Part shown: piece by piece, positions 4,742-12,527 of the stretch
How positions within the stretch are numbered: the stretch's first letter is position 1
Layout of the letters: each line of letters opens with the position of its first letter
Assembly: GCA_003635185.1 (NCBI GenBank)
Contig: PYJA01000069.1
Span: 1,027-65,026 of the forward strand
Origin: Candidatus Poribacteria bacterium
GTDB lineage: Bacteria; Poribacteria; WGA-4E; WGA-3G
Reading direction: 5' to 3'
DNA length: 64,000 nucleotides
Program-made: the position numbers and the translations under genes
The notes under the pieces: generated by a model
What the model was told of the DNA's origin: nothing
What the model saw: the letters and a program-made list of their open reading frames with translations, nothing else
Database searches by the model: none

Positions 4742-6781
4742 ATGAATGAATTTTTAACATTGTTACTCCCGTGGAAAGAGACACCAAATGACCAGATTTC
4801 CGACATTTTTGTTTATATCATTGGTGCTTCCTCCCTCATATTATTGATTTATTTTGTTGTAAAAATTTACCTCCGATACAACTCAATTAGAAATTTAACA
4901 CGCAAAATCAAAAACAGTCAATTCGAAAGACCCGCTCAGCCTTCAATATTACAGGAATTAAAAGAAGAGTTTGCTCGTAAAACCGAATTTACTGAAGCAT
5001 GGCAGGAATTTGAAGATTCACTGATTACACGTCAGCGTGATGAAAACCAAAAAATAGTATACAAAACAGATGAAGCATCATTTTTCTTCAGTGAAGACCG
5101 TCTACTTAGGCAATATATGAATCTTCGATTTTGGAATAGCATTCCTGCTATATTGGTCGGATTCGGGATTCTTGGGACTTTTGTCGGCTTAGTTTGGGGA
5201 TTGATACCGTTTTCAGATACTGATTTTCAAGAAACAGATGATATCAAGACTGCAATTGAAGGACTTCTCTCTGGAGTATCAACAGCGTTTGTCACATCCG
5301 TTTGGGGAATGGTAACTTCTCTGTTGTTTAATGCAGTGGAGAAGTTGACAATTGGGGGTTTAAATAGTGAAATATCAAATCTGCATCGGTCACTTGATAG
5401 AATATTTACATTAACAGTCGCAGAGGAAATTGCATTTAGGCAAGAAGATGAATTAGCACAACAGACATCAGCTCTTAAATCGTTTTCAACAGATTTATCG
5501 AATGTAATTATAAGTGCAATGACAGAAGGTAGGCAAGAATTAATTCAGGAGCTTCGCAAGTCAACTGATATTTTTAGCTATGCAATTACTGAAAAATTGG
5601 ATCTTACTCTTAATGCCTTGAATACTGCTATTTCAAGTTCTGAAAAAAATATAATAGATGCTATGAAGGAGGGTAGACAAGAAATTATTTCAGAGATCCA
5701 AAATGCTCCTGATGCATTTAGTGAAGCAGTGGCAAAACAGTTGGAACCAAGCCTTGATAAATTGAACGAAACCGTAGAAAAATTGCGACAAGAAAAAGAA
5801 GAATCTTCTACTGAAGCCATCCGAGAATTGGTTGAGGAATTTAAAAAAGCACTTTCAGGATCATTCACAGAAGAGATCGAAACTCTCGTGAAGAATCTTA
5901 GCACAGTGAGTCAAAGCCTATTAGAACTACCAAATCAGATGAGAACAATGATGGATGGGGTACAAGAAAAAATTGATGAAATCTGTGAATCACTGCAAAA
6001 AGCAATAGACGGACAAACTACATCTACGGAAGATACGATAAGGAAAATCTTGCAAGAACTTCAAAAAGCAATGGACGAATTGAAAGCAGTAATAGATTCC
6101 ACTACATCAACAGCCGCAACGGAATCGTCTGAAATGATTAGACAAATCCGAGAGAGTGTAAACGAAACTACAGATCGACTTAAGAAAATTTTTGAGGAAG
6201 GTGAAACACATATCAGCGTATTATTAGATCGTCAAAATAAATTGATTGAGGCGATTGATAAACCTATATCCAAATCGCAAGAAGCACTTCAGGCTGGAAA
6301 TGTTCTGTTGCAAGGAGTTAATACAAGCCTAATTAATGCAAATGAAATGATTGTGACAATGCAAGCATTTTCAGATCAATTGAAGGGATCCGCGGATACA
6401 CTTACAACCGCAGGAGAGAACCTGAAAGCATCAAGTGATGCGTTCAGTCACCAGAATGCCGAATATCTTAAAGCGAATCGCGAAACAAATCAGCAGATTC
6501 AAGAGTCTCTCCAACAATCCCAAAAATTGCTTGATGAGTTCGCTGGTAAATTTGAAACAATTCAGTCTGGGTTACAAGGCATCTTTGAGGAAATTCAGCA
6601 AGGCATGGATCGTTATTCTTCAACCACCCGTGAATCTATTGGAAAGTCTATTGATGAATTCTCTAAGCACTTGGCAGATGCTGCAGACAAGCTTGCTGGT
6701 AGTGTTTCTGCACTTGACAACAGTGTTGAGGAATTAAGTGACATGATTGAGCAATTTTCGAAGTTACGGAGAGACAGATAA
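4742..6781 (+). CDS. zorA: ZorA-like protein: MotA/ExbB-type proton-channel domain with a long coiled-coil tail (Zorya type I)
   Basis: Three TM segments include the MotA/ExbB-like block ILVGFGILGTFVGL...LSGVSTAFVTSVWGMVTSLLFN. These are followed by about 430 aa of low-complexity helical sequence. The stop overlaps the zorB start (TAATG). Confidence 0.85.
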   Translation: MNEFLTLLLPWKETPNDQISDIFVYIIGASSLILLIYFVVKIYLRYNSIRNLTRKIKNSQFERPAQPSILQELKEEFARKTEFTEAWQEFEDSLITRQRDENQKIVYKTDEASFFFSEDRLLRQYMNLRFWNSIPAILVGFGILGTFVGLVWGLIPFSDTDFQETDDIKTAIEGLLSGVSTAFVTSVWGMVTSLLFNAVEKLTIGGLNSEISNLHRSLDRIFTLTVAEEIAFRQEDELAQQTSALKSFSTDLSNVIISAMTEGRQELIQELRKSTDIFSYAITEKLDLTLNALNTAISSSEKNIIDAMKEGRQEIISEIQNAPDAFSEAVAKQLEPSLDKLNETVEKLRQEKEESSTEAIRELVEEFKKALSGSFTEEIETLVKNLSTVSQSLLELPNQMRTMMDGVQEKIDEICESLQKAIDGQTTSTEDTIRKILQELQKAMDELKAVIDSTTSTAATESSEMIRQIRESVNETTDRLKKIFEEGETHISVLLDRQNKLIEAIDKPISKSQEALQAGNVLLQGVNTSLINANEMIVTMQAFSDQLKGSADTLTTAGENLKASSDAFSHQNAEYLKANRETNQQIQESLQQSQKLLDEFAGKFETIQSGLQGIFEEIQQGMDRYSSTTRESIGKSIDEFSKHLADAADKLAGSVSALDNSVEELSDMIEQFSKLRRDR

Positions 6782-7536
6782 TGTATAGAACTCTTCCTAA
6801 ATCAAAATCGCTCACAGATGAAAATCCGTTCAGTTTATCATTAGGCGATTTAATGGCAGGTTTATTGCTAATTTTCGTGCTATTACTCTCTTTTCTCATG
6901 TTGGATTTGATGGAAAAAGAGGAACGTGATAATGAAATCAATAAGAGATTGTTGGAAATCTTTACAGATTACGTAACGTTACGCGAAAATTTATACAAAG
7001 ACCTTAAGAGCGAGTTTGAAGAAGATCTCCCAAAATGGAATGCAGTTTTGGATAGAGAGAAACTTTCTGTCCGTTTTAGAGAGCCAACAGTATTATTTGC
7101 ACAAGGACAGGCAGAAGTGCAGTTTGCTTTCAAAGAGATATTGGATGATTTTTTTCCTCGTTACATAAAAATTCTAAAACGCCCTGAATATGTCAATAGC
7201 ATAGCAGAAATTCGGATTGAGGGACACACATCGAGTGAATGGTCAGAGTTAGTTAGTGAAGAAGATGCATATATTCTCAATATGGAGTTATCACAAGACA
7301 GAACCAGAAGCGTGCTTCAATATGTGCTGGATGTACCTGAAATCGGTACTCATCGAGATTGGATACAGCAGCTCTTAACTGCAAACGGCTTATCTTCAAG
7401 TAAGCTGATTGATAATCCAGATGGCACACAGAATAGAGAAGAATCAAGACGAGTAGAGTTTCGCGTACGGACTAATGCAGAAAAGCAGCTTGAGAAAATT
7501 AAAGAACTTGAACACCTTATCGGAGATAAACCGTGA
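6781..7536 (+). CDS. zorB: ZorB-like protein: MotB-type TM plug with conserved Asp plus an OmpA-like peptidoglycan-binding domain
   Basis: N-terminal SLGDLMAGLLLIFVLLL carries an Asp just before the TM segment. C-terminal OmpA-like blocks are IRIEGHTSS, LSQDRTRSV and RRVEFRV. There is a 4-nt overlap (GTGA) with zorC. Confidence 0.85.
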   Translation: MYRTLPKSKSLTDENPFSLSLGDLMAGLLLIFVLLLSFLMLDLMEKEERDNEINKRLLEIFTDYVTLRENLYKDLKSEFEEDLPKWNAVLDREKLSVRFREPTVLFAQGQAEVQFAFKEILDDFFPRYIKILKRPEYVNSIAEIRIEGHTSSEWSELVSEEDAYILNMELSQDRTRSVLQYVLDVPEIGTHRDWIQQLLTANGLSSSKLIDNPDGTQNREESRRVEFRVRTNAEKQLEKIKELEHLIGDKP

Positions 7537-12100: not shown

Positions 12101-12527
12101 AATTGAGGATGTTGATGAACTTGATCCAAGATTCTTTGAAGTTTTTATTGCCACCTTATTTCAGAGACAGGGATACCACGTTGAATTAACACCTACTTCA
12201 GGTGACAAGGGAGCGGATGTTATCGTTCATGGGGCTCGAGGGGAAAATTCTGGGTTTCTGATACAGGTCAAACAGCGTCGAGTGGGTGGAAAACCAAAGA
12301 ATGAAGCAGTAAATGAGATTATCGCTGCAAAACCTTTTTATGAAGAAAAATATGGGACTACTTTTAAACCCGTTGTCATAACAAATCGTACTTTTACTAA
12401 AGAGGCGCGCCGTCTCAGTCGTACGAATGAGGTGCAGATGTACGAACGTGAGTGGATAATTGAAAATTTGAAGCAATATCCTGTAACATGGATAGATGTA
12501 AATCGATGTCAGTTTCAAACAGTTTAG
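9150..12527 (+). CDS. zorD: ZorD-like protein: SNF2-family helicase with a C-terminal Mrr-like (PD-D/ExK) nuclease domain
   Basis: SNF2 motifs: [47 protein letters not shown]. Helicase-C: [38 protein letters not shown]. C-terminal Mrr_cat-like block: [16 protein letters not shown]...[10 protein letters not shown]...LIQVKQRR. Confidence 0.85.
   Translation: [1125 protein letters not shown]

Follow-up and report, generated by a model that had tools for sequence, protein, structure and literature searches.

A type I Zorya operon of Candidatus Poribacteria, very probably long resident in its chromosomal slot and with zorABC probably replaced and zorD retained

Type I Zorya is an anti-phage system that has already been described and mechanistically dissected. 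In Escherichia coli Zorya I (EcZorI), mutagenesis has defined the essential residues of ZorA to ZorD; EcZorB needs its two disulfides, EcZorC is inactive without its C-terminal domain, which is needed for DNA binding and defence, and nuclease activity has been assigned to the Snf2-containing C-terminal half of EcZorD (PMC11946911). Further reference points are the type I ZorAB of Shewanella sp. ANA-3 (8vvn) and the type II ZorB of Sulfuricurvum kujiense (8vvi_A; Mariano et al. 2025, PMC11890865), while enrichment of Zorya has been reported for sponge microbiomes (PMC8777954). Here we analyse a four-gene operon, zorABCD, in a 64,000-nucleotide stretch of contig PYJA01000069.1 from a Candidatus Poribacteria bacterium (the window). 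Judged from its sequence, the locus is a genuine type I Zorya from Candidatus Poribacteria and as such an already known kind of system; the novelty lies in the swapping of parts among related genomes, not in the system itself. A full-text literature search on Zorya returned no title or abstract concerning module exchange or the four-cysteine ZorC tail described below. We consider it very likely that this type I Zorya anti-phage operon has long resided in its slot and that recombination among Poribacteria has exchanged zorABC, leaving zorD in place.

Gene order and protein families of the operon

The operon consists of four genes, numbered here by window position, with protein lengths in amino acids (aa):

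4742-6781, + strand: zorA, 679 aa, ATG start; rotor subunit of the MotA/ExbB type, extended by a long cytoplasmic tail
6781-7536, + strand: zorB, 251 aa, ATG start; MotB-like stator
7533-8975, + strand: zorC, 480 aa, GTG start; EH-signature DNA-binding protein by homology
9150-12527, + strand: zorD, 1125 aa, ATG start; N-terminal domain, Snf2 ATPase and C-terminal Mrr-type nuclease domain

The genes follow the order zorA-zorB-zorC-zorD, and the best PADLOC Zor profile of each protein is that of the family belonging to its own position; Zorya models likewise rank top for all four proteins in an NCBIfam search. The first three genes are translationally coupled: at the zorA/zorB junction (TAATG, 6779-6783) the zorA TAA and the zorB ATG share one base (gaTAATGta), and at the zorB/zorC junction (GTGA, 7533-7536) the zorC GTG and the zorB TGA share four bases (ccGTGAat). 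An initial annotation of the window had proposed four co-directional genes in type I Zorya order, joined by these two overlaps. Its coordinates and lengths are exact, both overlaps lie at the junctions that it named, and the PADLOC and profile searches by which it could be checked recovered ZorA-D, OmpA, EH_Signature, SNF2, Helicase_C and Mrr_cat; its view that Zorya is not new as a class also agrees with the published record.

Compared with E. coli Zorya I, the locus shares the zorABCD order, the T/S filter, Ile, Pro, acidic Ca2+ site and long tail of ZorA, the Asp and the N-x-x-L-S-x-x-R peptidoglycan-binding motif of ZorB, the E/H/R/W network of ZorC, and the N-terminal domain and Snf2 core of ZorD with its GKT, DEAQ and E524. 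It differs in that ZorD adds an Mrr_cat domain and lacks ~120 aa of the E. coli N-terminal domain (EcZorD 303-424), ZorB is barely similar (3.6e-03), has no cysteines and carries L for Y151, ZorC is shorter (480 versus 560 aa) without the E. coli C-terminal globular domain, and the ZorA tail measures 444 rather than 507 aa. The S. kujiense type II system supplies the best PDB match to ZorB; here, however, zorC and zorD are present, zorE (an HNH nickase) was not found among the neighbours, and ZorA is type I-like. As for the Shewanella pair, it shares a long-tailed ZorA (696 aa) and a peptidoglycan-binding ZorB, but its ZorA is less close than EcZorA, and its ZorB much less close than the type II protein. 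Among the five neighbouring open reading frames (ORFs) on each side, none encodes ZorE, ZorF or ZorG, and none has any PADLOC match.

Every residue that is essential in EcZorI and could be mapped is present here, as read from printed alignments to the PDB sequences 8qyd, EcZorB, 8r68 and 8qy7 and from a check of the codons. Relatives came from a scan of one genome per species, with loci labelled L001-L040, and conservation is counted in alignments of 33-38 Poribacteria homologues (ZorA 33, ZorB 34, ZorD 38), in which the mapped positions of all four proteins vary little or not at all.

ZorA matches the PADLOC ZorA1 profile over residues 11-665 (3.6e-57) and the NCBIfam ZorA subfamily NF033915 at 127.9 bits, above its cutoff of 100—the only NCBIfam model passed. 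Its closest PDB sequence is EcZorA (8qyd, 5.2e-25), followed by the Shewanella protein (8vvn, 7.1e-18) and S. kujiense ZorA (1e-05). The following parts were delimited:

4742-5446, + strand: ZorA membrane/motor part, aa 1-235, with hydrophobic segments at residues 22-40 and 130-155
5177-5179 and 5297-5299, + strand: ZorA ion filter, T146 and S186, equivalent to EcZorA T147 and S184
5447-6778, + strand: ZorA tail, aa 236-679 (444 aa), a predicted alpha-helical bundle

I143 and P135 correspond to EcZorA I144 and P136, and both positions of the Ca2+ site are acidic (E89/D92 for EcZorA E86/E89); all 33 Poribacteria ZorA share T146, S186 and I143. The initial annotation had described a MotA/ExbB-type protein with a coiled-coil tail of about 430 aa, close to the 444 aa found. 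Helical character is seen in the low proline content (4 in 444 aa) and in hydrophobicity that recurs every 3.6-3.7 residues, and the tip of the tail aligns with the EcZorA C-terminus. Scaled from the 507-aa, roughly 70-nm tail of EcZorA, this tail would extend ~60 nm. Its sequence is hypervariable, with 28-47% identity to relatives beyond the three closest genomes, and across the Poribacteria loci L001-L040 the similarly hypervariable tails range from about 320 to 620 aa (ZorA 554-852 aa).

ZorB scores best with the PADLOC ZorB2 profile (2.8e-83, 277 bits; ZorB1 4.1e-61), and ZorB2 is also its best NCBIfam model. Its PDB matches follow the same order: type II 8vvi_A at 1.2e-44 over residues 5-246, type I 8vvn_B at 1.4e-08 and EcZorB at 3.6e-03. 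By these matches ZorB falls within the type II ZorB clade, unlike the type I-like ZorA. Two features define it:

7093-7437, + strand: ZorB OmpA-like peptidoglycan-binding domain, aa 105-219
6847-6849, + strand: ZorB transmembrane Asp D23, within LSLGDLMAG (residues 19-27), equivalent to EcZorB D26

The OmpA domain exceeds its Pfam cutoff (29.6 versus 27.2 bits, E 9.3e-07), and D23, N167, L170, S171 and R174 are invariant (34/34), three of them (N167, L170, R174) being the equivalents of the EcZorB peptidoglycan contacts N152, L155 and R159. The MotB-like protein with a transmembrane Asp in SLGDLMAG and an OmpA-like domain that the initial annotation had recognised is therefore present in each of these respects.

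The resemblance of the third gene to EH-signature ZorC, on which the initial annotation had made its reading depend, is confirmed by Pfam EH_Signature (4.4e-38), PADLOC ZorC1 (2.4e-32) and EcZorC (PDB 8r68, 2.5e-11):

7767-8867, + strand: ZorC EH_Signature domain, aa 79-445
8697-8699, + strand: ZorC E389, equivalent to EcZorC E400
8820-8822, + strand: ZorC H430, equivalent to EcZorC H443

R324, W328 and W445 correspond to EcZorC R335, W339 and W458.

ZorD matches the PADLOC ZorD1 profile PDLC00631 at 1114.6 bits (E = 0, residues 51-1117) and EcZorD (PDB 8qy7) at 1.1e-125, the latter alignment stopping at residue 957. As the initial annotation had it, this is a 1125-aa SNF2 helicase with a C-terminal Mrr-like nuclease domain, each part recovered by its Pfam family:

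10512-11891, + strand: ZorD Snf2 ATPase core; SNF2-rel_dom aa 455-770 (3.2e-56), Helicase_C aa 798-914 (9.7e-13)
10581-10604, + strand: ZorD GKT, residues 483-485
10989-11000, + strand: ZorD DEAQ, residues 614-617, equivalent to EcZorD D730-Q733
12114-12461, + strand: ZorD Mrr_cat PD-(D/E)xK domain, aa 989-1104 (Pfam 2.6e-17)
12216-12218 and 12264-12272, + strand: ZorD Mrr motif, D1023 and Q1039-V-K1041, putatively catalytic

E524 is equivalent to the ATP-contacting E651 of EcZorD, and QxxDRxxRxGQ is invariant or nearly so across the 38 homologues, as are D1023 (38/38), Q1039 (36/38) and K1041 (38/38). The Mrr_cat domain has no counterpart in EcZorD. It is nonetheless a known ZorD sub-architecture, since an Mrr-like domain already figures in the original ZorD description, as that is cited in PMC11890865, and PDLC00631 covers it. 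The domain looks intact and is probably the source, or an additional source, of DNA cleavage, with translocation left to the Snf2 motor.

Could zorA and zorB instead form a flagellar stator or a Tol or Ton motor, next to a helicase that is unrelated or belongs to a Dpd or DISARM system? Weak matches of ZorB to MotB, MotS and Pal-type models point that way, as do the matches of ZorD to DpdE (5.3e-126) and DrmD profiles; but ZorD reaches 1114.6 bits with ZorD1 against 419.9 with DpdE, and ZorB 277 bits with ZorB2 against 47 with the MotB family. On the NCBIfam side, MotB-family models score 20-47 bits (cutoffs 259-312) and DpdE 19.8 bits (cutoff 500). A 444-aa tail on a MotA-like protein is Zorya-specific, an EH-signature gene stands between the pair and the helicase, and the neighbourhood is free of flagellar, Tol/Pal, Ton, dpd and drm genes—for flagellar and Tol genes within about 10 kb, in line with the initial annotation. 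A RecQ-family helicase at a distance of 24 kb gives the sole DpdF-like match of the window. We therefore give the motor and Dpd readings practically no credence.

Several observations do weigh against a functional type I Zorya at this locus. The NCBIfam equivalog cutoffs are missed by ZorB (197/400 bits), ZorC (74.5/490) and ZorD (530/1500), placing these proteins at a distance from the characterised enterobacterial ones, and ZorA stays below the gathering score of Pfam MotA_ExbB (20.2 versus 22.9 bits), so that of the MotA_ExbB assignment in the initial annotation the Zorya ZorA profiles match and the Pfam model itself does not. In ZorB, one of the four peptidoglycan contacts is changed (EcZorB Y151 to L), and the cysteine count is zero, leaving both EcZorB disulfides absent. 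ZorC has ~35 aa after W445 where EcZorC has ~100, and thus no C-terminal globular domain of the EcZorC type; it has also lost a different tail, treated in the next section. Finally, consensus scans of 3300-14000 stayed at background and were uninformative, with 25 promoter-like sites where 25.7 were expected, although promoter types of Poribacteria may differ from the consensus, and 10 terminator-like sites where 7.7 were expected. Of the structural differences, the disulfides are a feature of the E. coli protein outside the family definition, and the C-terminal globular domain is not a family-wide ZorC feature, since most Poribacteria ZorC are without any such domain.

By analogy with published studies of the systems of E. 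coli, Shewanella and S. kujiense (PMC11946911, PMC11890865), from which we infer stoichiometry, trigger, ion type and activity here, five ZorA and two ZorB would assemble as an ion-driven rotary motor in the inner membrane. Upon perturbation of the envelope by a phage, the linker-less OmpA-like domain of ZorB would reach and grip the peptidoglycan, and ion flow via ZorB D23 and the ZorA T146/S186 filter would rotate ZorA and its tail. The rotating tail would then recruit and activate the DNA binder ZorC and the Snf2 ATPase-nuclease ZorD, which would degrade incoming phage DNA near the membrane and spare the cell. With the T/S pair as the only filter, the driving ion is probably H+, though less surely so in a marine organism.

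The four-cysteine tail of ZorC

The 175-nucleotide spacer between zorC and zorD corresponds to coding sequence in related genomes:

8976-9149, + strand: decayed zorC 3' end (zorC-zorD spacer), an out-of-frame remnant of a CX4C...CX2C tail

In L001, L029 and L031, the nearest relatives with a ZorC tail, ZorC reads through to 510-522 aa, ending ...INCPNKNCKQKLQIPVTENQLRITCPTCRTTFEY / ...EKIRINCPNKNCKQKLQIPVTENQLRITCPTCRTTFEY (CX4C...CX2C), 11-12 nucleotides before zorD. Relative to these, the window carries, within 8921-9149, a 65-nucleotide insertion that introduces the stop TAA at 8973-8975, a 1-nucleotide deletion after 9066 and a TGT-to-AGT change (Cys to Ser) at 9106-9108. The insertion contains a 21-nucleotide exact direct repeat (8923-8943 and 8989-9009), with 36 nucleotides of unique sequence between the copies. 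Both halves of the old tail can still be read in the other two frames; its loss is therefore recent, and the spacer is no true intergenic region. The initial description of the operon as complete accordingly holds for its four genes, and needs qualifying for a zorC without the four-cysteine tail of L001, L029 and L031. In the relatives, Pfam matches of the tail are sub-threshold (IBR 1.1e-03, Zn_ribbon_Nudix 1.3e-03, Zn_ribbon_4/5), so that calling it a zinc ribbon relies on the CX4C...CX2C pattern.

Three independent lesions within one gene end could also mean that this type I Zorya is in early decay and no longer protective, the lost ZorC tail disabling DNA binding or recruitment. EcZorC without its C-terminal domain is indeed inactive (PMC11946911), and Zorya has decayed elsewhere: in L039 (9216-10911), within the same slot (OsmC/orf160, see below), a zorA motor fragment is fused to the last ~290 zorD codons with ~6.1 kb deleted, and L024, L028, L031 and L037 have broken reading frames for ZorA or ZorD, which may be pseudogenes or assembly errors. 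Here, by contrast, the four reading frames are intact and the key residues all present. Moreover, of the 36 ZorC ORFs recovered from relatives, 30 are without an added C-terminal domain and stop at much the same position (...SYRL), five have the four-cysteine tail and one (L025) has HEAT repeats, making the 480-aa protein of the window the commonest ZorC architecture in the phylum and the tail, by its looks, an optional appendage; several PADLOC ZorC1 profiles are themselves just 432-467 positions long. The tailless proteins include that of L002, 87-90% identical to the window ZorC. On these grounds the truncated 480-aa protein is probably functional, and we consider a decaying, non-protective operon unlikely, though it is the strongest of the rival readings.

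Two further variants were seen among the relatives. In the ZorC of L025 (8259-9950), a C-terminal HEAT-repeat domain (HEAT_2 1.2e-09) takes the place of the four-cysteine tail, and a divergent ZorC class (L004, L040) is without the canonical EH-signature Glu; some ZorC are without the His.

A shared chromosomal slot and the probable exchange of zorABC

Relatives of ZorD with 60-85% identity were recovered from about 40 genomes. Almost all of these bear the label Candidatus Poribacteria, and they include sponge metagenome-assembled genomes (MAGs) and the single-cell genome WGA-3G; the apparently uncultivated lineage of the initial annotation is thus one represented by Candidatus Poribacteria MAGs. 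The operon is flanked by metabolic genes, upstream for an enolase-superfamily protein, an SDR, TatD, an ABC permease and an OsmC/TusA fusion, and downstream for a tautomerase, two paralogous lipoprotein-like ORFs, an ornithine cyclodeaminase-like protein and an enolase-superfamily protein. The arrangement OsmC/TusA - Zorya - orf160 - tautomerase is common to the window, L001, L029 and L040, and the OsmC/TusA gene also lies upstream of Zorya in L002, L005, L018, L026 and L031. The operon sits in this slot in at least nine related genomes, and a decayed copy is found there in L039. In other groups of Poribacteria the operon has different surroundings, conserved within each group (about six context groups), and zorD identity to the window tracks the context group.

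The loci L001 (IRC4_bin_14) and L029 (RHO1_bin_11) have the same slot and genes as the window, with 81-96% protein and 86-89% nucleotide identity. Unlike the window, they encode a ZorC that still has its four-cysteine tail (510-515 aa) and have 680-820 extra nucleotides between the OsmC/TusA gene and zorA, where the window has a spacer of 40 nucleotides. In L001, this interval includes a DUF5615/PIN-like ORF (5168-5500) that is absent from the window. Elsewhere among the relatives, the surroundings of Zorya (L007:3051-4844, L005:2457-3386, L006:3194-4174) gather mobile or defence-type genes, namely a GmrSD-type restriction enzyme (GmrSD_N 2.4e-30), a candidate transposase-like ORF and a DUF4268 protein. 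At the operon borders in the window, a search found no nearby tRNA, integrase, Rfam element or flanking direct or inverted repeats; the sole repeat that it returned is the 21-nucleotide duplication inside the zorC 3' end. Because the slot is shared by related species and ZorD has orthologues in about 40 genomes, the operon appears to be a long-term resident of this slot and not a recent arrival.

The ORF that starts 10 nucleotides after zorD (orf160, 12537-13019, 160 aa) was considered as a fifth Zorya gene and rejected. It is kept in the slot of the decayed L039, some 2.3 kb separate it from zorD in L018, and Zorya loci in other contexts do not have it; since it is conserved in the slot (66-92% identity) even where Zorya is gone, we count it as part of the flank. 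Searches of Pfam, PADLOC, NCBIfam and PDB gave no match; by eye, the C-terminal …FYRSIGF… is reminiscent of a GNAT acetyltransferase motif.

The composition of the operon is uneven. GC content is 0.373 in zorA, 0.376 in zorB, 0.398 in zorC and 0.427 in zorD, against 0.432 +/- 0.031 in the other 45 ORFs of the window, and the GC content at third codon positions (GC3) of zorA, 0.294, is the lowest of all. The initial annotation had called the whole block AT-rich, which is true of zorABC; zorD is indistinguishable from the other ORFs. It had further suggested horizontal acquisition of the block, and a recent transfer of all four genes could account for the low GC of zorABC (0.37-0.40) and the extreme GC3 of zorA, the more so as the Zorya lineage does move between genomes (see the GC gaps below) and transposase, PIN-like and GmrSD genes lie beside the operon in relatives. 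Yet zorD stands at genomic GC, at least nine related genomes share the slot, zorD identity follows the context group, the borders are without flanking repeats, tRNA or integrase, and zorABC falls below zorD in GC in nearly all 34 relatives, so that part of the skew is intrinsic to these genes. Recent acquisition of the whole block is thus a highly improbable account, and that suggestion is not supported.

In pairwise comparisons, the operon is a mosaic of identities. Between the window and L040, which share the slot, flank proteins are 88-96% and ZorD 83% identical, whereas ZorA reaches 41%, ZorB 34-38% and ZorC 43-46%; within ZorA, identity is 62% for the motor and 31-40% for the tail. With L005 and L018, the ZorA motor is 83-84% identical (about 85% for its DNA), the tail DNA cannot be aligned (36-38% identity at the protein level) and zorB-zorC DNA is 71-73% identical.

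ZorB, encoded at about 7.7-8.6 kb of each locus, is dimorphic in Poribacteria, with two classes that are about 38% identical: class 1, ZorB2-like, comprises 22 sequences (the window and 21 relatives), and class 2, from 11 genomes, is slightly closer to ZorB1. Both classes are present in contexts A, B, C, D and F, where they alternate in shared chromosomal slots. For pairs of loci within one context, ZorD averages 81.7% identity if the two ZorB fall in one class and 81.4% if they do not, versus 83% and 39% for ZorB itself. The loci L006 and L007 differ almost only in zorB (ZorB 39%; tail 83%, ZorC 70%, ZorD 86%). These patterns are best explained by repeated replacement of zorB or zorABC through homologous recombination against a resident zorD, which would also account for zorABC alone being compositionally odd.

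The lineage seems to have been transferred whole as well. In L017, L027 and L030, operon GC (0.46-0.50) lies 12-16 points below that of the flanks (0.59-0.63), which points to movement of the entire operon out of low-GC, Poribacteria-like donors. With L035 added, these loci span Zorya GC values of 0.35-0.50 in flanks of 0.50-0.63; one of them is labelled Latescibacterota and one Spirochaetia.

In partial Mantel tests on pairwise-identity matrices, the ZorA tail and ZorC were correlated given ZorD (r = 0.63) and given ZorB (r = 0.66; permutation p <= 4e-04), exceeding the correlation of tail and ZorB given ZorD (r = 0.28, p <= 4e-04), even though zorB lies between the tail and zorC. This covariation agrees with the published model, in which the ZorA tail recruits ZorC and ZorD (PMC11946911). 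We treat it as a lead and not as a result, because the ZorB dimorphism and shared ancestry confound it. A tentative and, in our judgement, somewhat doubtful extension is that the locus is a polymorphic immune locus in which zorD acts as an anchor, two ancient zorB classes alternate in the slot across at least five contexts and the tail co-varies with ZorC. If the covariation and dimorphism reflected selection (a balanced sensor polymorphism and a tail-ZorC specificity match) and not just recombination or rates, these genomes would amount to a natural chimera library that reveals which Zorya parts must fit together.

The value of the locus is comparative, with no new kind of system added. It extends fully intact type I Zorya to an uncultivated phylum of sponge symbionts, where the system is widespread at fixed chromosomal positions. 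It also offers natural variants of features that are essential in E. coli—a disulfide-free ZorB, ZorC without the C-terminal domain or with four-cysteine or HEAT appendages—and a ZorD with a dedicated Mrr nuclease domain. The putative exchange of zorB or zorABC against a constant zorD would provide chimeras for motor-tail-effector recognition, the least understood step of Zorya.

Other features of the window

Two genes with PADLOC matches outside the operon were rejected as defence genes: 36529-38286, matched as DpdF (1.4e-133) or PsyrT, is a RecQ-family helicase in NCBIfam, and 43294-45153, matched as mad3 (4.2e-32), an MsbA-like ABC transporter. A further pair of genes lies about 5 kb from Zorya:

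17808-18836 and 18849-19787, - strand: two adjoining type II-like N6/N4 DNA methyltransferases (PADLOC MTase_II 1.5e-36 and 1.3e-33)

A 222-aa ORF with no match (19784-20452, - strand) overlaps the second of them, and this second methylase and the 222-aa ORF are absent from the syntenic region of L029. The segment 17808-20452 may be an inserted restriction-modification module.

The lipoprotein-like ORFs downstream of the operon (13843-14667 and 14778-15623) are tandem paralogues of 274 and 281 aa with ~70% nucleotide identity, kept in L029; their N-termini are signal-peptide or lipoprotein-like, and they have no family match. Upstream, the 600-nucleotide spacer between the ABC-permease and OsmC/TusA genes contains an inverted repeat (3663-3729; 21-nucleotide arms, 95% complementary, 25-nucleotide loop), with terminator-like hairpins at 3652-3666 and 3744-3769. 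Stable RNA genes comprise tRNA-Thr and tRNA-Phe at 35315-35594 (- strand) and, at the end of the window (63700-64000), tRNA-Ala(TGC) followed by the first 132 nucleotides of a 23S rRNA gene.

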